This document shows, one piece after another, positions 1,605-61,309 of a DNA stretch of 64,000 nucleotides (positions are counted from its first letter, which is position 1; each line of letters begins with the position of its first letter). The notes under the pieces were generated by a model. That model did not search any database. It had not been told where the DNA came from and was given only the letters and a program-made list of their open reading frames with translations. A program made the translations under genes and the position numbers. The stretch is from Amoebidium appalachense. Taxonomy: Eukaryota > Protista > Ichthyosporea. The stretch covers positions 3,267,375-3,331,374 of the forward strand of contig CAVNZM010000017.1 of the NCBI GenBank assembly GCA_963693365.1. The letters are read 5' to 3'.

Positions 1605-6033
<4,429 letters not shown>

Positions 6034-7656: not shown

Positions 7657-11487
<3,831 letters not shown>

Positions 11488-11699: not shown

Positions 11700-19780
<8,081 letters not shown>

Positions 19781-21411: not shown

Positions 21412-27524
<6,113 letters not shown>

Positions 27525-30984: not shown

Positions 30985-32106
30985 ATGGCACACGAAGTAG
31001 ACCCCGCGGGTTCGTTTTCTGATACCGATGTGGAATCGCCACCACCCGTCAGAAACTCGGCCATGAAACGGGCGCATCAGGCAGGCGGTACACCCTCAGG
31101 AAACGAGAGCGAGCAACTCGGACGACCGGAGAGCCAGATTAGAGAGAACAGGTGTGTGCGTGTGCGACGGCGGTTAGCCGAGCTCCCAAACCGTGTGGCA
31201 TGTCTTCTGTGCCCAAAGTCGTACGGGTCCGACACGGCCATGCTTCACCACATGCGCCTGAAGCATTCTCTGTCTGCAGCGGCAGCGCGCCAGTCGTTTC
31301 TCGCACGGAAGATCAAAGAAAATTATGGAAAACCACACAGTGTCGCCGGGACACCTATAGTTGTGGATGATAAGCACTTGGTGGCACAGCACATCTCGAT
31401 GCAGCCAATTACATCCTCGGGTACGCTGGAGCCGCCCAATGAACGTGGGGCAGGGTGGGCAAGAGCCAATCAGCTCTCTCCGCCGGCCCACCACCACCCA
31501 TACGCAACCCCCACGCACCCGTTTGCGGTCCCCTCAGTTCGCACATCGAGCAACGGTCACTCCCCAGACAGCACGTGGACACCACGTGTTCCCTATTCAC
31601 ACTCACCGCACCACAACGAGCCCTCGGCCGTGTATCGCAGCGTGAGCGGTGATTCCATTGGCTATGTTCCGCGAACACCGGATGACTATGGTGGATATTC
31701 GTCTTTTGCGTTTGCCACCGGTCCGGCCATACCATATCCGGAAAACAGCTCGAGTTCGGGCCAAACCATCTCATGGCCGGCACACCAGCAGACAGATGCA
31801 TCCCCATATGCCCAGGGTGGGAAATTTGCCCCGTGCGAGCAGACTCCTCCACCCCATGTGGCACATATTGCATCATTTCCGAACGAGCGGAAAGATACGC
31901 ACGTGGAAGTGAAAAGGACGGGTAGTGAGACGACAGGTGGGAGGGAGGATCGGGCAGGGAGTGCCACTCCGGAGAGTGGTCATGGGAACAGTGTGGAGAC
32001 CACTAGTACCCATACGGCTAAATCGGTGGTGGATGAAGGTAAAAAGGCGCGGGTTTTTACGTCTCGGTTTTCGATTGCGTCACTTTTGGCCTGCGAAGGT
32101 CCGTAA
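30985..32106 (+). CDS. Intronless single C2H2 zinc-finger protein (373 aa) with C-terminal eh1 (Groucho/TLE-binding) motif; putative repressor
   Basis: Long non-repetitive ORF; CLLCPKSYGSDTAMLHHMRLKH = C-x2-C-x12-H-x4-H preceded by basic RVRRR; S/P/H-rich middle; C-terminus SRFSIASLLACEGP*. Confidence 0.85.
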   Translation: MAHEVDPAGSFSDTDVESPPPVRNSAMKRAHQAGGTPSGNESEQLGRPESQIRENRCVRVRRRLAELPNRVACLLCPKSYGSDTAMLHHMRLKHSLSAAAARQSFLARKIKENYGKPHSVAGTPIVVDDKHLVAQHISMQPITSSGTLEPPNERGAGWARANQLSPPAHHHPYATPTHPFAVPSVRTSSNGHSPDSTWTPRVPYSHSPHHNEPSAVYRSVSGDSIGYVPRTPDDYGGYSSFAFATGPAIPYPENSSSSGQTISWPAHQQTDASPYAQGGKFAPCEQTPPPHVAHIASFPNERKDTHVEVKRTGSETTGGREDRAGSATPESGHGNSVETTSTHTAKSVVDEGKKARVFTSRFSIASLLACEGP

Positions 32107-40504: not shown

Positions 40505-41594
40505 GGGGGCAGACATGGTGTGCCTGTCTGTGTGTGTGTGTGTGTGCGTGTTTGTGGTGGTGGTCGCGGTTGTTGTTGTGGTGGTGGGGTGTGTGTGTGT
40601 GTTTGTGTAGGGGTGGGGTGTTTGGGGGGCATTGGGGGGTTGGTTTACCAATATATGGGAGTGGTATGGGTTGGATACTTTAAGGGGATATGAAGAGGAA
40701 AAGAAAGACCTAGGGGGCGCTGGCGCTCACAACTGGAACTCACACAAAGCTCTCTGTGTCCCATGCCGACTAGCCCCCTTGCCCCCCCCCCCTCCCCCCC
40801 CCCCAGCTCCCCTTCCCCATCCTACCCACTCCCGTTTGCACACAGCTGTCACACACAGGTCTGTGCCAAGCCTTGTCGGCAGAAGAATGAAGAATGAAGG
40901 CTGTCAATGTGATATTTCGAATGACAGGCCAGTGTGCCAGAAGCCTTATAGACAGACCAGGGCACCCGTAACATGCATATGCGTGCCTTCGTGTGTTTCC
41001 TCATGCCTGTGTCCCTTGACTGACCAAATATTAGAACTCAAGGAGTTGTGTTGTGCCTCCACCTTTACTGGAACTTTTTTTTAAGGTAATATTAGTAAGC
41101 CAGGTAGGCAGTACGTAGGCCATGTAGCCATGTACATACATAACATGAGGAGCAGTGCTCCCACTTAGTAATATTAATATTAGTTGCCAATAAATAAACC
41201 GTGTAGACTGTTTTCCTCAACTGTTGCATTTTTGCTTTGTGTTGGAGATCTTTGTTTCCTAGAATGACATACCCGTTGACCATATGGAGTTCCTCATGCG
41301 TGCACGTGCACCGCGCAAGCAACAATTGCAATTGCAAGGGAGCTCGGGGTTCATGTGTATTTTGGTACGTATCAGTGCGTGTTCACACCGACACAATATA
41401 AAGGGTGTTCATTTACTGCGGCTGGGGCACAACCTGTATGCCAGCTGCTTGCCTCCTGCATGATATATGAGCTGTGCAGTGAGTGAGGTGCCCCCCTAGC
41501 TGCATGCCAAGAAAGGAATGAACTGACCCGCCACATGACAAGAGCGGGATGAGGTATCTCGGGGTGACCGGTCTTTCTGCTTTTTAAGAGGTGA

Positions 41595-41990
41595 ATGAGA
41601 TGCCCGGCCCAGCTGTGCATGCATTATACAAGCAATGAGATGTCCCGGCCCAGCTGCATTATACAAGCAATTAGATGTCCTGGCCCAGCTGCATTATACA
41701 AGCAATGAGATGTCCCGGCCCAGCTGCATTAATACTAGGGAGCATTGAGGTGCCAACCAACTGCATTAAACGAGCTTACCCCAGCTGCATTTTAGGAGCA
41801 ATGCACGTGCTACCCATCTGCATTAAACGAGTAAACGTCCCAGCTTTATTAAGTTAATTGATCATGGAGCAATGAGGTGCCACTCATCTGTTCAATAAGA
41901 GTAACCCAGCTGCATTATGGGAGCGATGAGGTGCCACCCACCTGCTTTAAACAAGAAAACCCAGCAGCAATATAGGAGCGATGGGGTGGC
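41595..41990. repeat. Degenerate ~36-bp tandem array
   Basis: GAGATGTCCCGGCCCAGCTGCATTATACAAGCAAT x4, decaying rightward into related GAGCAATGAGGTGCCAC..CTGCATTAAACGAG units. Confidence 0.75.
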
Positions 41991-46372: not shown

Positions 46373-48279
46373 CGGGGGAAGGGTGGGGGAGGTATGGGTA
46401 CTTACGTGGGGAATGCAGGTACCACTATTGTGGGATAGCGCCAAAGGAGACATCACCGTACTATCCAGACTACATGAGCTACGAAGCAGAGAGGTGGGTG
46501 GGCACACACACACACACACACACGCACACACACATTCACCCGTATTCATGTGTGCGCGCACACACACACACACACACACATGCACACGTACACACACACA
46601 CACACAAACACACATGCACACGTACACACACACACACACAAACACACACATGCACACGTACACACACACACACAAACACACACTTGCACACGTACACACA
46701 CACACAGGTACACGTATGCATGTGCGCACAAGCGCACACGCCCACCACATGCTCGTGCACACACAGGGAGTTAGGAGATGGTTGGTGACATTCCAGTGCG
46801 CAACTATAGCGAGAGGGGCCCTGGGGCCTGAGAAAGGGGGTAGCTATTTAACGAGCCTTGACTCATGCACACATGATGCACTTACAGGCATGTACACGTG
46901 CACACACACACACACACTGCGCGCGCGATAAAAAGCATGTACGGGCCTTGGTAATCAGTGGCTTCACACATGCACACACACACAATCACACTGTGTGCCC
47001 AGCACACCTTCGGCTGCCCAGCACATTGCTGCTGCATGTGTGTGCGTTTCAGTCTCTTCTCATTTCTACATGTGCATCCCCCCCCAAACACCCACCCCCT
47101 CCCCTCCTCCCCATCCGCCTCTCTCTACCTTTCTTCGTCCCCAGCTGCCATTCTTTTCTGCCGACCACTTCTCCCTTTTTTCCGGGCTTGTTTTTTTACG
47201 CACACAGCCCTGCCCAACCTTTTTCTTGCATGTGTGTCCGTCTATGTATCATTCTCACCAGAACCCCTTTCAAACCCTGTGTGCCTGTGTGTGTGCGCTT
47301 ACCAGTAACCCCTGTAGTGCTACACCTCTGTCTCTGCCTGTGTGTGTATACCGCCTTCCCCCCCCCCCCCCCCCCCCGTCCTCCTTCCCCCCTCTCCCCT
47401 TCTCCCCCTCAAGCCCACCTTCCCACACAACCTGCCACCCTCCCCCTTCTTGGGCCTCTCCTCTCACCCCCTCCCTCCCCCCCAATCCCCCCTCCCCGCC
47501 TCCCCTCCCCACAACCACCACCACCCACCCACCCACCCCACCCCACCTCCACCCTCACCTCCACCCCCCTTGCACCCCCTCTGTCTGTGGCTGTGTTCTA
47601 ACCACACACACAGGATCAAGCGCAAGTGTGCCAGCACAGGGCTGATGCCTGGAGAGCAGGAGCTAGCTACCCTCCAAGCAGCCGCAAATGTCACAGCAGC
47701 AAGGCAAGACCACACAGACACACAGCAGGTGGGGGTTATGTCTTTCTCTGTGTGTGGGTGGGTGTGTTTGCGTGTGTGGGTGTGTGGGTGGGTGGGTGGG
47801 TGTGTTGTGTGTGTGTGAGGGGTTCATGTGTGTGTGCATGTCTGTGTGCATGCACGTGTGTAGGAGCACATGCACCACGGTTCAGCACGAGTGCATTCCT
47901 ATCCTACCGAGAGAACATCAGCTGCAATCCAAGACCTAGGCACACGCAAATTACCTTATAAGTTGCCCCGTTCTGTCAGTCATCCGTAGCCTACCCTACT
48001 CTTCTGCACGATACCGTACCCCCCTGACTGTGGTTGGTTGCATGCTTGAACGTTTACTTTTTCATGCGCCCTGTACCATATTTCTCATCGCTTAGTTGTA
48101 CCTCGCGCCGTGTTCCTCATCTCCTACTAACCCCCCCTGTCTGTATTTTCAGAGCGCAGGGATGCTTGGTGACCAGGGAGACCTGCTAGTGGATGTGACT
48201 AAGCCCCGGGGCAGAGACCAGGTCATGGCCGACAGGGCCAGAATACAGCTGCAGGTACGAAATTTCTTCTTTGAACCCC

Positions 48280-48318
<39 letters not shown>

Positions 48319-49857
48319 ACACACACACGCACACCTTCATGGTTTTTCTCACGAAGAGCTTTTGGAGTCCCGGGGGGGGGGGGGGGGGGGGGGGCTGGGG
48401 GGGATGTCGCAGAAGTCATGTGCCCCCTCAACCCCACCCTCCTCCCTCCCTCCCACACACCGAAAAGAAGAAGAAAGCCTTGTTCGGCGTTGAGGACGGT
48501 AGAGATTTGAAAGACATTGCATGAGGCGGCATGTCACCCTCCTTATGATGCATCATGCCTCATTCTAGTTTGTTTCTCTCTGCCAAACTGCGGCGTGTCT
48601 CCATTTGATCCGCCAGCGGTCCTCTGTTTTCAAACACCGTAATCCACCCTATTCCATCCTCCGTCTATGCTCACACAACACACACACATACACATACATA
48701 CACACACACACACAACTCCCCCCCCCACACACACACACAACTCCCGCACACACACACACACACACCGTGACGTACACACATACACAACGTGCGCGCGCAC
48801 GCACACATATACACATACACACACACACACACACACACGTTCACACATACACACACGCGCGCCGTCCGCAGTTCCCCACACGGCAATTTGTGTCCCTACC
48901 TGCACAGGTTACCGCAGATGAAGCCAACAGCCTGTTGGCCCGTTACCGTGTGCATGTCAGTGAGGTGCTGGACTGGGTTGCACGCACGGACTTTGCTGAG
49001 GCATGTGCACGCGCCCCCCCCCCCCCTCCGCCCCTCCCCCCACACACACACAAACACCCGCCCCGTCCCCACTCTCCTTTCTTTCTCTCTCAGCTCCTTC
49101 CTTTTTCAGCTTCAACCACCCCTTCCCCCTCCCCCCTCCCCCCCCCCCCCCCCCCCCCCCCCCCCCTGCCCATGACGTGGGCCCCCCCTGAGGATGGGCT
49201 CTGCTTATTATGCATACTCCTTATGTATGGTTTGCATTCTGCATCGTGTTATCCGTTGTTCTTATGTACTTCGTACTTTATGACGCATTCAAACCCCCCC
49301 CCCCCCCCCAGCCCCATGCATACTGTTTTATGTGTTGAAACAGTTTGTATTTCGTTGTTACTCGTGAATGTGTACCACGTTTACTGTAACACAATTAAAC
49401 CCCCCCCCCCCCCCCCCCCCCCCCCTTTCCCTTTCGCCCTAAGTGCATGCTCCTGGTTACATGGTTGAGCGAGCACCTGGTGATGTAGAGACCTCTTTAT
49501 GACTTAACTATGTGTATGTGAGCATGTGTATTCGGGGTGGGGCCTCTCTCTCTCTCTGTCTCTCTCTCTCTCTCCCCCCCCCCCCCCTCCCCCCCCCCCC
49601 CCTTCTCCCCTTTCTTCTTGTCTCTCTCCAACATTGCGCCCCCTCCCCCCACACCTCCACAGGCGCACACACACACACACACTTCCCTTAGATTGCTTCA
49701 CATTTCCATTTGGCCCTAACCCCCCGTGCAGGTTGAGAGTGCATGGTTCAAGTTCTGGCAGGGGCTGCCTGAGGGCAGTGATCGGGTGCTGGAGTGTGCC
49801 GAGGTCATAGATGTCATCGCTATGTGGGACGACATCTTCTGCAACGTACGGGCACAC

Positions 49858-49893
<36 letters not shown>

Positions 49894-50250
49894 ATGTGCA
49901 TGTGCATGTGCCTGCGTGTGTGCATGTGTGTGTTTCATGTTGGTCACGTGGTGTGCATGGTTGGGGTTGTGTGTTCACTATATTGACACATTGTACACTC
50001 TTTGCTCCTAACTTGTCTGGGTTGTTGTTTCGTGCCTGTGTGTGTGTGCGTGTGAGGGATTTGGGGGGGAGGGTGTACGTGTGTGTGTGTTTGTGGGGGG
50101 GGGGAGAGGGGGTGGTGACGGCAATGAGTCAGTGTGCTGCAAAGGGTAAAGCAATGACGTGGAAGTTGGGGGGGGGGGGGGGGGGAGAGCGGAAAGGGTG
50201 GTGGCAGGGTGGGACAGGTGGGGATACGGGGGGAAGAGGCGAAAGTATGT

Positions 50251-50281
<31 letters not shown>

Positions 50282-52351
50282 GTGTGATGTGTGTGTGTGT
50301 GGGCATGTGTGTGGTGTGGTGTGTGTGTAGGTGTGGTGTGATTTGCACCTGGGTGCTTGCACCACACCATGGGTTCGTGTGCCATGCCCTGTGGGTTGGT
50401 CCACACGCATCAGTAGCACGTGACCACACGCAGCAACAGCACGTGACCACACGCATCAGTAGCACGTGACCACACGCAGCAACAGCACGTGACCACACGC
50501 ATCAGTAGCACGTGACCACACGCATCAGTAGCACGTGACCACACGCAGCAACAGCACGTGACCACACACAGCAAAAGCAGGTGGCCACACACAGCAATAG
50601 CACGTGGCCACACATACCACTAGCACGTGACCACTGACATGCAGCCAATCCCCTCAGGCCATGCTGGACCTCCTCCTCCCCTGTGTGACCATGCCTGTGC
50701 AGGGCAGCCTCACGGTGGCCATCAGAGACTTTGCTAAGGCCATGGAGAGGGGCCTGGCCCATGCAATGGCCGGCAGGCCTAATGCACTGCTGGCTAGAAG
50801 GCTGGAAGGTGCGTGGAAAGTGTGTTGTGTCTGTGTGTGTGGGTGTGTGGGTGTGTGGGCGCATCCGTCTGTTTTCGTGTGCCTGTGCATGTGCGTGTTT
50901 GTTCGTGTGTGTGTCCCTGCAAGTGTGTAGGCATGTGTGTGCCTATGCGTAGTGTCCGTGTGTTCCTTGTGTGCACTTGTGGATTTGTGTGTGTGCACCT
51001 GTACATCGTTATTTTCTTGCACGTGCGCATCCGGGTGCACTCTAGCTTGGGGTGCATGTGCCTGTGGTGTTTGTGTGTGTGCCTTGGACGGCATTGTGTG
51101 TGTGTGCACGTTCTGGCTCTGCCTTTGTCACCTGCACGTGTTTTTCTGTGTTGGCATGTGCTGCCCGTGTCCCGGCAAGCACTTTGAGCCTTCCCCCCCC
51201 CCCCCCTCCCCCCCCCATCTCCCCCGAATAACCATGCATGCTCTCTCCCCCCATGTTGAGGGAAATCTGTGTCTAACCCCGCCCATCATCCCTCTCTACC
51301 CTACCCTTCCCCCCCCCCCCCCCCCCCAACATACACACTCCCTAGTTACTTGCGGTTTTTTTCACTTTCAGGCTCCTAGGCATTTGGGGCCCTCGCTTAG
51401 TTTCTCACATGCCATCCCCCCTCCCACCCCCTCTCCATCCCCCCCCCCCCCCCCCCCCCCCCGTGTCGTATATACGCGGGCTAAGGGGTCGAAACTCAGA
51501 CGCAATTGATGACTTGGGTCCTCCCTGAGGATGGGCTCTGCTTATGACGCATACTGTGCACATGGCTGATGTTGCATACTTGAATGTTTGCCTTTGCATG
51601 TGTCCTGCACCATGCTTCTCGTCGTGTATGCGTACTTTGTACCGTGTTCCGCATTCAAAACCCCCCCAGTCTTCTTTCAGAGGTGTCCTTTCAGGACAGA
51701 CCACTGTGTGGAGACCGCTTTACTTCCATGCAACCGGGCATGGTTGCTCTGTGTCGTGCATCTGTAAGCACATACACATTTTTCGCTGCACTGCATTAGT
51801 TTGCACACACATCTTCACCGTTTTGCTCACCTTGCTTGCATAAGCAACCCTGCTCGTCTTTGATCAAGACGGGTTGACCCGCCCAAGCTCAGTTGATGCT
51901 GCTGTCTGAGTTGGAGTGTCGTATATACGCGGGCTAAGGGGTCGAAACTCAGACGCAATTGATGACTTGGGTCCTCCCTGAGGATGGGCTCTGCTTATGA
52001 CGCATACTGTGCACATGGCTGATGTTGCATACTTGAATGTTTGCCTTTGCATGTGTCCTGCACCATGCTTCTCGTCGTGTATGCGTACTTTGTACCGTGT
52101 TCCGCATTCAAACCCCCCCCCCCCCCGGCGCCCCCTTCCCCCCAGTTGCCAGTGTCTACTCATCGTGCCTGCGAGGACAGACCTCCCTCAACCATTTGGC
52201 CCAGGCTGCACGTGCAGTCATGCAGAACGAGGTGGGTGGGTGTTTGGGCAGGATAGGAGACGGTGGGAGGGAACTTGGAGAGCAAATGACTATGTTTGGG
52301 CAGTTTGGAAAAATGGAGATGGAGCAGGAGGGAGAGAGGAATCGGCCCGGG

Positions 52352-52389
<38 letters not shown>

Positions 52390-52639
52390 AGGGGAGGGGG
52401 GGGGGAGGGGGGGAGGGGGAGAGGGGGGGGGGGGGGGGGGGGGGGGGAGGGGGCGCTGGTTGTGGAGCGATTTGATGGTTGTGGGGTTCTGGTAAGTGAA
52501 GGTGAGACAAAAAGAGATTTTTTATTGGTGAAGTTTTTTGTTTCGTTGACACACGTACACATGCAGTCTTGCCACATACACTTACATTGAAACGAGTTGG
52601 ATAAATGGAAGGATGGCCCCATACTTAGCGGGTGCATTG

Positions 52640-52673
<34 letters not shown>

Positions 52674-55600
52674 TGCAGGATGCTGTTGCACAGATGGTGT
52701 CTGACTGGGGGCATGTGGACTTTGGGGATGTGGAGGCACAGGCACGGTGGGCCTTTGACGATGCAGGCATGGACCTGCTGAAGAACCGTACGTGCTGTAC
52801 AGGCATGCACGTGCACACAGGCATGCACGTGCACACAGGCATGCACGTGCACATGAACACATACACGTACGCTGAGGCACGCATGTGTTTGTTGGCACAT
52901 GCACGTGAACACTCACGCGCCTTAACACAGGAACGTGCACACACCACGTCCAGGGCATGCACGTGCAAACACATGAAATGCACACATGTCATGTGCACAC
53001 CCATGCATGTACGCATATAAGGTGTGTGCAATGTGCACCCCATCTCGCACATGGGCGTCTAGACGCATACAGGCAGAGTAAGATGTGCCTGCGTGCACGA
53101 GAGACCCACGTGCACGGGCACACACGAAGCAATCTATGATCTACCCCCTTTACTTTGTTGTCTGTTCTGTGTAATATCCTGCCCCCTTCCCCCGCCCTCC
53201 TCCCTCCTCTCCCTCCCTCCAAACAAGAAAAAAAGAAACGAGGAAAGAAAGACAGAAAGAAATAAAAGAAATCGGGCGCTCTGGTTGTATCGTGCCTACT
53301 CAAGTGTATGCATTTGATTTGCATTTTCTCTTTTTGTCAGGAGCGTGTGCTTTGTACTCTGCAGCGCGCTAACCTCCTCCCCTACCCCCCCTCCTCTCCT
53401 CCTCCCCCTCCCCCCCTCCCCCCCTCTTCCCCCCAGTGTACACTGGGCTCAGTGAGCTACTAGAGGAGGGGCCATGCCTTGAGGACTATGTGGATTGGCT
53501 GGAGGGGTTGGTGGAAGACACCATCACAGATAGGGTGGGTGGGTGTGGTGGGGGGGGGGGGGGGGGGGGGGGATGTGCTAGTGTGTGGTGTGTGTACGTG
53601 GTTGTGTGGGTGGGTGTGGGTGGGTGGGTGGGTGGGGTGGTTGGTGGGTGTTGGCGTGGTGGCGAACTTTGTGACTTGGGTGGGTTTTGTGTGCATGTTT
53701 GCATGTACGTGTCTGTGGTGTGTGTGTTAGTGGTGCATGCATGCACATGCGCCAACGTGTGGGTGGATGGATGGGCAGGTAGTCGGGCATATGTGTGCAA
53801 ACATCTGCCTGGCTGCTAGGGTATGTGTGCAAACATCTGCCTGGCTGCTAGGGTATGTGTGCAAACATCTGCCTGACTGCTAGGGTATGTGTGCAAACAT
53901 CTGCCTGGCTGCTAGGGTATGTGCGCACGTGCATGTGCCCATACCCGGAGGGAGGGGGGAGGGGGGGGAAGTACATGCTCTCTATAAAACGCTGTGCATA
54001 TCTGTATATCGACGTTGAATGCATTATCCAAGCAGACACGACGTGCATGCGTTCATATACCCGTATAAGAATGTTCACATGTAGAATGCACACATGTGCA
54101 CAACATCCACAATCGGTAATTTCATTCGCGCTCTCTGCTTTTCACATGTGCTTTTATCTGTCATCCACTCACCCCCACACTCCCCAAAGTACCCTCCCTT
54201 TCTTATACATGCCAGCTGTGCCCACCACCCATACACCTACTATAACCCCTCTGTGTGTGGCGTATGCCCTAACTGGCATTAACTCATTCGCCTACTAACT
54301 AATATTAACCCATACACCTACTAACTAGTATTAACTCATACACCTACTATAACCCCTCTGTGTGTGGCGTATGCCCTAACTGGTATTGACTCATGCGCCT
54401 ACTAACTAATATTAACCCATACACCTACTAACTAATATTAACTCATACACCTAACTATTAACCCATACGCCTACTAACTAATATTAATCCATACACCTAA
54501 CTAATATTAACCCATACGCCTACTAACTAATATTTATCCATACACCTAACTAATATTAACCCATACACCTACTATAACGTCTCTGTGTGTGGTGTATGCC
54601 CTAACTGGTATTAACTCATGCGCCTACTAAAAAATATTTACCCATACACCTACTAACTAGTATTAACTCATACACCTACTAACTAATATTAACCCATACA
54701 CCTACTAACTAATATTAGCCCATACACCTACTATAACCTCTTTGTGTGTGGTGTATGCCCTAACTAGTATTAACTCATACACCTAACTAATATTAACCCA
54801 TACACCTACTATAACCCGTCTGTGTGTGGTGTATGCCCTAACTAGCATTAACCCATCTCCAGAATGACCTGCACCTGTGTGTTGCCGAGCTAGGCACCTT
54901 CATGCTGCGCTGGTCCTTCCTCACCGCTCTCATCATCAGAGACCTCACCCTGCGCTCGGCTGCTAGCTTCGGTAATAAAAAAAAACCCCCCTTGTCATTA
55001 GCCTCAAAAAGCCACACCCCCTAAAAACACAGACATATGCACACGTACAAGCACACAGGCACGCATGCTTGCACACAGGCAAATGTCCGCGCAGACACAA
55101 GCGCATGTGCGCACGTGCACACACACCCCACGACTGGCCCACCAACGCCATACAGGTCATATATGTCGCCACATGGAGACACCCGTACCCTGTCCTTTGC
55201 CTTTTTTCCCTCTCCCACCATGTCCACCGTTCATTTCCAGTATCCCTATATTCGCTCTCCCCCCCCCCCCCCCCCCCCCGAACAGTATCTGAGTTGGGTT
55301 TCGTTAGCGAGGTGAGTAGGTCGAAACTCGGATACTGTGGATGACGTGGGCCCCCCTGAGGATGGGCTCTGCTTATTATGCATACTCTTTATGTATAGCT
55401 TGCATTCTGCATCGTGTTATCCGTTTGCTCTTGTGTACTACTGTATGTGCATGTCCCCCCCCCCCCCCCCAATTTCTTCTCACCCCAATTGAACGTCCCA
55501 TGCACGGTGGTGCACCCTCACTGCCTGAATTTCTTGCTACCGCCCGATCACAACCTGCGCCTGGTGCCATGCCATATTTTGATTGGACCTGGCTGGCGGC

Positions 55601-60827: not shown

Positions 60828-61309
60828 AGGATGGGGGGGAAGGCCAAGAGGGAGGGGGGAGGGGGGGGGGAGAGAGGTATATGGTTGTTTTCTGTACCTG
60901 GCCGATGTCAGGCTCGTGGTACAGCTCGTGCATTGGATTTTCATACAGGTGGATGGTCTTGTCTGTGGATGACGCCCGATCATGAAGCTCCATGGCTCCC
61001 TCGGGCACCACCATGTCATCGTGTAGCCTAAAAACATAGGGTTAGAGCAAATTCGGGGTGCTTGCATGGGGTAGAACAAGTAATCGATGTGGAAGACAGG
61101 TGGGTGATGGATGTTGTCTGTGCGACAGACACTGTTTGGGTGCACCTAGGATGCATGAAGGAGGGGTAAGAAGGAGTGATCGGAGGAAAGGATGAGCAGC
61201 CAGCACCGCCCAGAAAGGGGGAGAAAATAGTTAAATTCGAGCTCAATGTGATGTGCCTGTGTATGTGTGTGTGTGTATGTACCTGTATGCCTGTGTACGT
61301 GTGTGTGTG

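Follow-up and report, generated by a model that had tools for sequence, protein, structure and literature searches.

A probable split-core hammerhead of scrambled strand order in a non-autonomous, likely Penelope-like retroposon of Amoebidium appalachense

The window analysed here is a stretch of 64,000 nucleotides of the Amoebidium appalachense contig CAVNZM010000017.1. The DNA is eukaryotic: its exons are short, its introns of the GT-AG type, and it contains CA repeats and long runs of C/G. A repeat element sits in sense orientation in the intron between 50688-50831 and 52145. Four exon pieces around it align with successive stretches of the RFX BCD domain, all of them scoring under the Pfam cut-off. 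A search with a PI-PLC exon gave no hits at first and then ten distant ones, among fungi, ciliates, and unnamed records. Self-comparison of the window resolves the repeat into two subfamilies, A and B, plus one decayed piece:

51463-52119, plus strand: partial-tandem insertion of subfamily A, with C runs on both sides, in the host intron
51463-51667, plus strand: 5'-truncated A copy, the upstream part of this tandem
51668-52119, plus strand: whole unit of about 452 nt (A1), the downstream part of this tandem
52085-52119, plus strand: common 3' end, consisting of the GTAC hairpin, CATTCAAA, and a C run
24606-24903, minus strand: copy A2 with complete core (G10.1 at 24827, U16.1 at 24792, G12 at 24759, C3 at 24725; stem II of 7 bp)
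17540-17811, plus strand: copy B1 with whole core and private letters at 17645 (stem I), 17698 (P3), and 17710 (G8)
55281-55439, plus strand: 5'-truncated copy B2 with cleavage site, GAAA, and CUGAGGA intact (U16.1 at 55294, G12 at 55323, C3 at 55356; stem I of 3 bp, stem III of 12 bp)
49172-49293, plus strand: 5'-truncated copy B3
22213-22299, minus strand: copy B4, of which only the 3' end is present
48037-48154, plus strand: decayed A-like piece of 72-75% identity, lying across a unit junction

The 5' ends of the repeat unit vary, while its 3' end is fixed. Its length of about 452 nt and its head-to-tail arrangement follow from contigs that join 52112 back to 51668 over a short C run; the joint is present in contigs of all four runs (15, 4, 1, and 2 contigs per run), with 6 to 8 letters between the ends, nearly all of them C. 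The two adjacent A copies share 197 bp at 100% identity. C runs lie upstream of all six insertions, against a background in which 12-mers with at least eight C make up 6.6% of the window, and five of the six copies end in CATTCAA(A) followed by a C run, B2 being without such an end. The region 52085-52119 is likely the priming region for reverse transcription. In run X1, 14,284 contigs fall on the A stretch and 7,429 on the B stretch; these counts, which are not copy numbers, point to many copies of the element. Among the runs listed as containing the element, none is recorded as RNA, although X12 may be an RNA run. Pfam searches of 136 ORF pieces of the window (of 143 picked) revealed no reverse transcriptase, and the 82-aa reverse-strand frame across the element has no Pfam match. 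A covariance model built from five rows of the window recovered the six pieces already known to bear the core (E < 1e-5), along with 18 matches that were weak. Apart from one chance match in viral_contigs, no relatives were found in viral, metagenome, and prokaryote contig collections. The lone viral_contigs match falls in coding DNA as judged by eye.

The sequence-only reading had described a conserved three-way junction of about 160 nt within the element. The conserved fold stands, while a three-way junction containing the P3 proposed there is unsupported. The revised parts, all on the plus strand and given for A1, are:

51840-51850: P1 5' arm (51840-46) with its CCC extension (51848-50), pair probabilities 0.81-1.0
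51852-51874: P2 hairpin, which with P1 fills the gap from A9 to G10.1; its loop has the palindrome TGATCA in both subfamilies
51876-51881: putative stem II 5' strand, G10.1 at 51876 with a U before it, pairing with 51938-43
51882-51891: P3 5' strand, from the fold and a two-sided change
51892-51897: predicted bulged strand of a kink-turn, with a GUU bulge followed by G, A, U (in B1 AGU, G, A, A at 17624-29)
51903-51912: stem III 3' strand, U16.1 at 51911 and U17 at 51912; predicted cut 51912/51913
51913-51916: putative stem I 5' strand, 4 bp in A and 3 bp in B, pairing with 51974-77
51917-51937: variable linker joining stems I and II; its hairpin at 51920-29 is palindromic (another palindrome in B1)
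51938-51955: stem II 3' strand (51938-43), G12-A13-A14-A15.1 (51944-47), and stem III 5' strand (51947-55)
51960-51971: non-bulged kink-turn strand U, G, A (51960-62) and P3 3' strand (51963-71)
51974-51985: stem I 3' strand (51974-77), C3-U4-G5-A6-G7-G8-A9 (51978-84), and an unpaired U (51985)
51986-51998: GGG of the P1 extension (51986-88) and P1 3' arm (51992-98)

P1 (51840-46/51992-98), said to be an invariant closing stem, is present, invariant in the three copies that have both arms, and paired with probabilities of 0.95-1.0 in A1. The P2 hairpin is likewise real, with its register shifted to a best pairing of 51852-60/51866-74; CCC 51848-50 pairs with GGG 51986-88 (p 0.82) and does not close P2. 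The P3 of the sequence-only reading has a pair probability of 0.0 in A1, and folds keeping its helices are worse than the revised nested fold by 8.1 (A1), 14.2 (A2), and 6.4 (B1) kcal/mol. Its supposed 3'-arm change in B is seen in copy B1 alone, at 17710, where G makes up 99% of run X1 depth on a stretch that A-type contigs cover too; B2 and B3 also have G. The true P3 is 51882-91/51963-71 (p 0.44-0.99), with a change from A-U to U.G between the subfamilies. P4 is borne out, including its two-sided changes, and corresponds to hammerhead stem III. The conserved words and the terminal GTAC-TTY-GTAC hairpin are present as described, and selection on an RNA structure of about 160 nt is supported.

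In the computed nested fold, the apical loop holds the cut site and GAAA, and the basal junction holds CUGAGGA and the stem II 5' strand. Positions 51876-81 are left free in A1 and B1, but not in A2, whose minimum-energy fold is another structure (-61.1 vs -55.1). In subfamily A, a local hairpin covers the stem I 3' strand and G7-G8. Folding z-scores are modest (A1 -2.2, B1 -1.0, reverse strand of A1 -2.3). Comparison with Rfam, which the sequence-only reading had recommended, gave no match at gathering score across the 64 kb. With matches admitted up to E 10, the best weak cmscan match of B1 is Hammerhead_1 (E=2.1), with the same stem II strands paired; those of A1 are two lncRNAs on the C run only (E 1.1 and 9.7). 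A short word on the reverse strand resembles large-subunit rRNA, presumably by chance.

Two pseudoknot helices overlooked by the earlier reading would provide hammerhead stems I and II. Judged by its letters, the RNA has all hammerhead core nucleotides present and in register, with the strand order scrambled and CUGAnGA split: CUGAGGA at 51978-84, GAAA at 51944-47, and GUU at 51910-12. CUGANGA follows the stem I strand in A1, A1p, and A2, and likewise in B2 and B3, whereas B1 departs by its private G8 change and is likely inactive. G12, A13, A14, and A15.1 are accompanied by the R10.1-Y11.1 pair, as G51876-C51943, and U16.1-H17 lies between stem III and stem I within GUU 51910-12. U17 is able to pair with A14. 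From this register, cleavage is predicted after U51912. Complementarity and two-sided changes together suggest stems I and II: two of the six stem II pairs are changed on both sides between A and B, and the third pair of stem I, A-U in subfamily A, is replaced by G-C in B2, as read from the sequence where MAFFT placed a gap. Unphased variants at 17612 and 17666 (3-5% each), possibly from A-type contigs, would keep a stem II pair. Alternative G-starting strands for the stem II 3' strand are found at 51970, 51987, and 55349. The resulting order, II5'-S-G-I3'/CUGAGGA, corresponds to none of the circular orders of types I, II, and III. Among the candidates listed by the sequence-only reading, the ribozyme would be the right branch, although as a rearranged hammerhead and not as new chemistry. 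A further candidate pseudoknot, GCTC/GAGY, was discarded, its need being removed by the majority letters of B and by P2 pairing. Splicing to join A9 to G10.1 was also rejected, as GT or AG is absent at the split.

In A1 and A2, a descriptor scan recovered all three stems (I, II, and III) in register with the core. When strand order was left free, the descriptor matched only A1, A2, and B2 on both strands of the 64 kb. With the descriptor and thresholds set after the sequence had been seen, dinucleotide shuffles of the 176-nt core gave 19 loose matches and none as observed in 20,000, and those of the whole unit 13 loose and none as observed in 8,000. All 16 core letters are the same in A and B, compared with 29 of 51 other unpaired positions; for the unpaired core letters (10/10 vs 29/51) Fisher's test gives p 0.007, a contrast inflated by misalignment of the linker. 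Two-sided changes comprise two pairs in stem II, one in P3, and one in stem III, and four such changes were reached in 26 of 500 shuffles. Across 47 pairs, 97.4% of 152 cells are paired, as opposed to 30-45% when slid. Since there are only two lineages, this covariation is support and not a significance test. Read variation affects 23 of 445 positions and none of the core positions, which is uninformative because so few positions vary.

Between P3 and P4, both subfamilies contain a 3-nt bulge followed by G.A and A.G, flanked by a C-stem and an NC-stem (register read from the sequence). All four G/A letters are kept between A and B, while the bulge letters change. This pattern of a kink-turn would link the I-II interaction helix to stem III. 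The sequence-only reading had noticed a kink-turn-like pair of words; TGA 51960-62 does take part, although its partner is GA 51895-96, and CTGA belongs to the hammerhead core. A C/D snoRNA was rejected. A SECIS element, whose core pattern fits a kink-turn, was rejected because the apical AA is absent and Rfam gives no match. In A, the 3n position is U.U, which we take to indicate a box C/D-like kink-turn. We know of no kink-turn in a natural hammerhead, and none was found in a search of mainly open-access literature. The motif consists of a 3-nt bulge with G.A and A.G pairs, and B, with G at 3n, would be ion-foldable by the published rule (PMC5061560, PMC4382518, PMC5689011).

The closest known counterparts in strand order are the non-circular hammerheads. 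Eckert et al. (2023, PMC10085705) report that the SGC order from metatranscriptomes and the CSG order from metagenomes cleave, with stems II and III coaxial. There, the blocks C, G, and S are assumed to be uninterruptible apart from one or two inserted nucleotides, and no non-circular hammerheads were found in genomes of known organisms, save for one weak bacterial GCS case. The element resembles type SGC in having S at 51903-16, G at 51938-55, and C at 51974-84, with P3 as the joining helix. It differs in block C, which is uninterrupted in SGC but opened here at A9/G10.1 by P1 and P2; the 5' strand of stem II that covaries is located 102 nt upstream of C3. The split falls at the U found between A9 and G10.1 in most of the SGC rows seen, and here a U stands on either side. 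These rows also share with the element GAC..GUC in stem II and an interaction helix flanking block C, and several have U at position 17 as well. Three near-identical rows have a 7-bp interaction helix and CUGAGGA-U-GACC identical to subfamily A, which hints at kinship. An unpaired base between A9 and G10.1 is also reported in hammerheads of Penelope-like elements (PLEs) and in a viroid, and U17 likewise occurs in PLE hammerheads. In contrast to the SGC rows, with 5-7 bp, stem I has 4 bp in A and 3 bp in B. Both strands of the interaction helix run into stem III via the kink-turn pattern, a feature lacking in the SGC and CSG examples seen; the linker is a hairpin of about 20 nt instead of about 3 nt, and the overall length about 160 instead of about 80 nt. 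Furthermore, the element is a eukaryotic genomic repeat, whereas the SGC and CSG forms stem from metatranscriptomes and metagenomes. Other HRIMA motifs in the supplement of that study could resemble the split form. The term 'type-SGC' was found only in Eckert et al. (2023) in the literature searched. No split-core hammerhead and no non-circular hammerhead in retroelements was found in the mainly open-access literature covered.

The element itself is likely a non-autonomous Penelope-like retroposon of Naiad/Chlamys type. Chlamys PLEs and their non-autonomous forms show 5' truncation, partial tandems, and (C)n targets, and are without a canonical hammerhead (Craig et al. 2021, PMC8557442). Naiad/Chlamys elements including MRC1 share with the element the 5' truncation, the partial tandem pLTR, the head-to-tail units, and the (C)n target. 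The element combines 5' truncation, a fixed 3' end, a partial tandem pLTR, and a microsatellite target, but, unlike Naiad/Chlamys PLEs, has no ORF. Five of the six Chlamys ends shown finish with AACCCC, as does the element (PMC8557442). A search with five motifs found no sequence relative among the published Chlamys/Naiad consensi. The last 500-600 letters of ten Naiad consensi labelled HHR_core or HHR_half_core were then read by eye, unscored. By this reading, a complete CSG hammerhead with intact block can be traced in Naiad-3_Nbra, Naiad_Hpol, and Naiad_Smim (3/10), and the split form appears in two of the ten. Naiad_Bfor has the same split layout in unrelated letters, with a 10-bp P1, a 7-bp P2 with palindromic loop, U before G10.1, a 6-bp stem II, a 16-bp P3, a 7-bp stem III, and a stem I of 2-3 bp; in Naiad_Ovul, whose layout is also split, stem I has 6 bp and P1 is weak. 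The displayed stretches of the other five (Parc, 3_Dst, 1_Chem, Esco, and Tama) gave no clear fit, no core was seen in the seven Chlamys ends viewed, and no kink-turn was seen by eye in the Naiad examples.

Retrozymes and PLE hammerheads offer a further comparison. As described by Cervera and de la Pena (2014, PMC4209133) and in a 2026 retrozyme preprint (bioRxiv 10.64898/2026.07.22.740005), which names Naiad five times, they form small non-coding tandem units with one hammerhead each, like the element. For non-LTR retrozymes and PLEs, cleavage of multimers, circle formation, more-than-unit copying, and a possible need for two copies are proposed, all of which would suit the element. Their hammerheads belong to type I and have a stem III that is short and palindromic, whereas the element has a long stem III and a pseudoknotted order.

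A rough rod geometry, with 2.8 Å per layer and stems II and III coaxial, was used to consider how the parts could meet. The arm measures 70-73 Å and P3 25 Å, leaving a gap of 30-48 Å when the helix radius is allowed for; by this estimate, closure of a monomer is impossible while the kink-turn is folded. If the loop is opened, A could close (gap 25 Å, linker up to 52 Å), while closure of B is doubtful (36 vs 26 Å). Two copies docked base to apex close as a parallelogram. Since the 9-bp P3 is too short, when the kink-turn is folded, for a molecule's base to reach its own apex, two-copy docking is favoured; if the RNA is active, docking in a tandem transcript would be the somewhat likelier arrangement, closely followed by a monomer with open loop. 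In Naiad_Bfor, 16 layers face 16, lengths that would fit a monomer. For PLE hammerheads of type I, the accepted model is one of action as dimers (PMC4209133; bioRxiv 10.64898/2026.07.22.740005).

Taken together, the element probably contains a split-core hammerhead of scrambled order in a likely non-autonomous Penelope-like retroposon, predicted to self-cleave after U51912 and most likely to act as two docked copies; we assign this reading a probability of about 0.7. The RNA would run through P1, P2, the stem II 5' strand, P3, the kink-turn, stem III-GUU-stem I, and the linker hairpin, and return through stem II-GAAA-stem III, the kink-turn, P3, stem I-CUGAGGA, and P1. Stems I and II would dock the basal junction onto the apical loop, and tandem transcripts would be cut into 452-nt units. 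P1, P3, and stem III may keep the ends of a unit together, so that it can be ligated into a circle. C/G runs would be nicked by the reverse transcriptase/endonuclease of a PLE, encoded elsewhere, which would prime near the C run of the unit; copying for more than one turn would yield partial tandems, and for less than one turn 5'-truncated copies. Transcript cutting, ligation, and more-than-unit copying have been proposed for PLEs (Cervera and de la Pena 2014, PMC4209133; bioRxiv 10.64898/2026.07.22.740005), and internal initiation of reverse transcription is shown for a Poseidon PLE.

A structure derived from a hammerhead might instead be kept without cutting, as a binding or dimerisation site for the reverse transcriptase or a host kink-turn protein. 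The short stem I, the hairpin over the core, the alternative fold of A2, and the geometry hindering a monomer are in line with this, as are reports that PLE hammerheads are weak in vitro. Most copies run beyond the cut site, where read depth shows no step; the upstream partial A copy starts 3 nt past it, which, for one of six 5' ends, may be chance. We regard a non-cutting role as unlikely, because the unpaired catalytic letters are fixed while their neighbours change and the full-core layout recurs, by eye, in Naiad_Bfor and Naiad_Ovul. An ordinary type-SGC hammerhead is quite improbable. It would have an intact block C with UG inserted after A9, 51987-92 as the stem II 5' strand, and P1 and P2 merely flanking; six pairs are possible in A, and the 2023 scheme allows an insert of one or two nucleotides. 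Three of these six pairs are G.U, however, and only four wobble-rich pairs are left in B, whose changes break the 51987-92 pairing yet keep the distal stem II. Moreover, GGG 51986-88 is used by the P1 extension (p 0.82), and the interaction strand comes after 51876-81, not after 51987-92.

Readings without a hammerhead account for less of the evidence. A Pol III SINE or a captured ncRNA with A/B boxes or a C/D snoRNA piece and no ribozyme role would explain the box-like words and the short, abundant, 5'-truncated copies. The A/B boxes proposed by the sequence-only reading nevertheless fall on two strands of the ribozyme, the one with the cleavage site and the one running stem II-GAAA-stem III, so that the hammerhead register explains these words; their spacing is short and variable (26 vs 22 nt between subfamilies, counted by hand from the A-box GG to the first B-box G), compared with about 34 in tRNA. 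The boxes are internal and no SINE head is present, conservation reaches 60 nt upstream of them, units lie head to tail with a C-run joint, and neither Rfam nor ARAGORN gives a match, which makes this origin very improbable. Common descent or recombination of recent date, with no selected structure, might also underlie the similarity of A and B, given just two lineages and modest folding z-scores. That the spacers up- and downstream align poorly while the core is about 75% identical, that changes keep pairing, and the shuffle test leave this equally little likelihood. An HDV-like ribozyme, in which GGCUAA ahead of the pseudoknot strand would be J4/2, is hardly credible. The succession of GG, hairpin, GCUAA, and pseudoknot strand in A has what we take to be an HDV-like look, and one low-agreement loose-end contig line reads GGCGAA, but the would-be catalytic C is T or G in B (at 17661, G in 55% of X1 and no C), P3/L3 and P1 are not in the order required for HDV, and Rfam gives no match.

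If the preferred reading of a split-core hammerhead is true, it extends the known ways of building this ribozyme, adding a topology outside the current six-order scheme, and gives hammerheads of non-circular order a home in cellular genomes, along with a plausible function there. In RNA engineering, a two-copy ribozyme braced by a kink-turn would also make a useful switch part, and the order-free descriptor is applicable to any genome. It is possible, though rather doubtful at present, that non-circular and split-core hammerheads are the overlooked ribozymes of Naiad and Chlamys elements, that in the retroposon described here the kink-turn parts the catalytic halves and cutting proceeds only by domain swapping between two copies of a tandem transcript, perhaps gated by the 15.5K protein of the host, and that genomic circles of this kind are one source of the SGC ribozymes in viroid-like RNAs. 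This would answer why Naiad/Chlamys PLEs, with their HHR_core and HHR_half_core labels, appeared to be free of hammerheads.

Palindromes lie inside the element, in the loop of the hairpin P2 and in the linker hairpin between the predicted hammerhead stems I and II:

51860-51867, palindrome in the P2 loop, common to subfamilies A and B
51920-51929, palindrome in the linker hairpin of subfamily A
17650-17657, palindrome in the linker hairpin of B1, a copy of subfamily B, the letters of A and B1 being unlike each other

The P2-loop and linker palindromes could aid dimerisation or template switching. In two runs, a single contig apiece shows the core of subfamily B with a short TAGGG-type repeat inserted at 17672-17682.

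Directly 3' of the 5'-truncated copy B3 lies a unique piece of 90 nt (49308-49398), which begins with a resemblance to the 3' part of the element and ends in TTAAA and a C run. A second copy was not found within the window, and the piece is possibly the 3' end of a third subfamily. A decayed A-like piece crosses a unit junction at 48037-48154 and appears to provide the pyrimidine tract and AG for a host 3' splice site. The intron after about 48992, near the RFX-domain gene, appears to start with GC. Host exons and minisatellite arrays, the latter bearing no relation to the element, are located as follows:

49726-52813, exons of the RFX-domain gene
2798-3010, exon piece of PI-PLC
8251-8448, exon piece of a GNAT acetyltransferase
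31159-31332, exon piece of a C2H2 finger protein
60871-61041, exon piece of a hydrolase
548-1136, minisatellite array
41594-41988, minisatellite array
50401-50634, minisatellite array
54227-54856, minisatellite array

The remaining observations lie outside the window, in Penelope-like elements of the Naiad and Chlamys groups. Among ten Naiad 3' ends labelled HHR_core or half_core in File S5 (Craig 2021, PMC8557442), inspection by eye identified complete type-CSG hammerheads, with the non-circular order and an intact CUGAnGA block, in three, and the split-core form, interrupted between A9 and G10.1, in two. In the same supplement, the consensus preceding Chlamys-1_dArm has GACC and GGUC forming a hairpin close to its 3' end, with GAAAC coming next, and CUGAnGA is absent from the displayed stretch. 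The hairpin and GAAAC perhaps constitute a half hammerhead.
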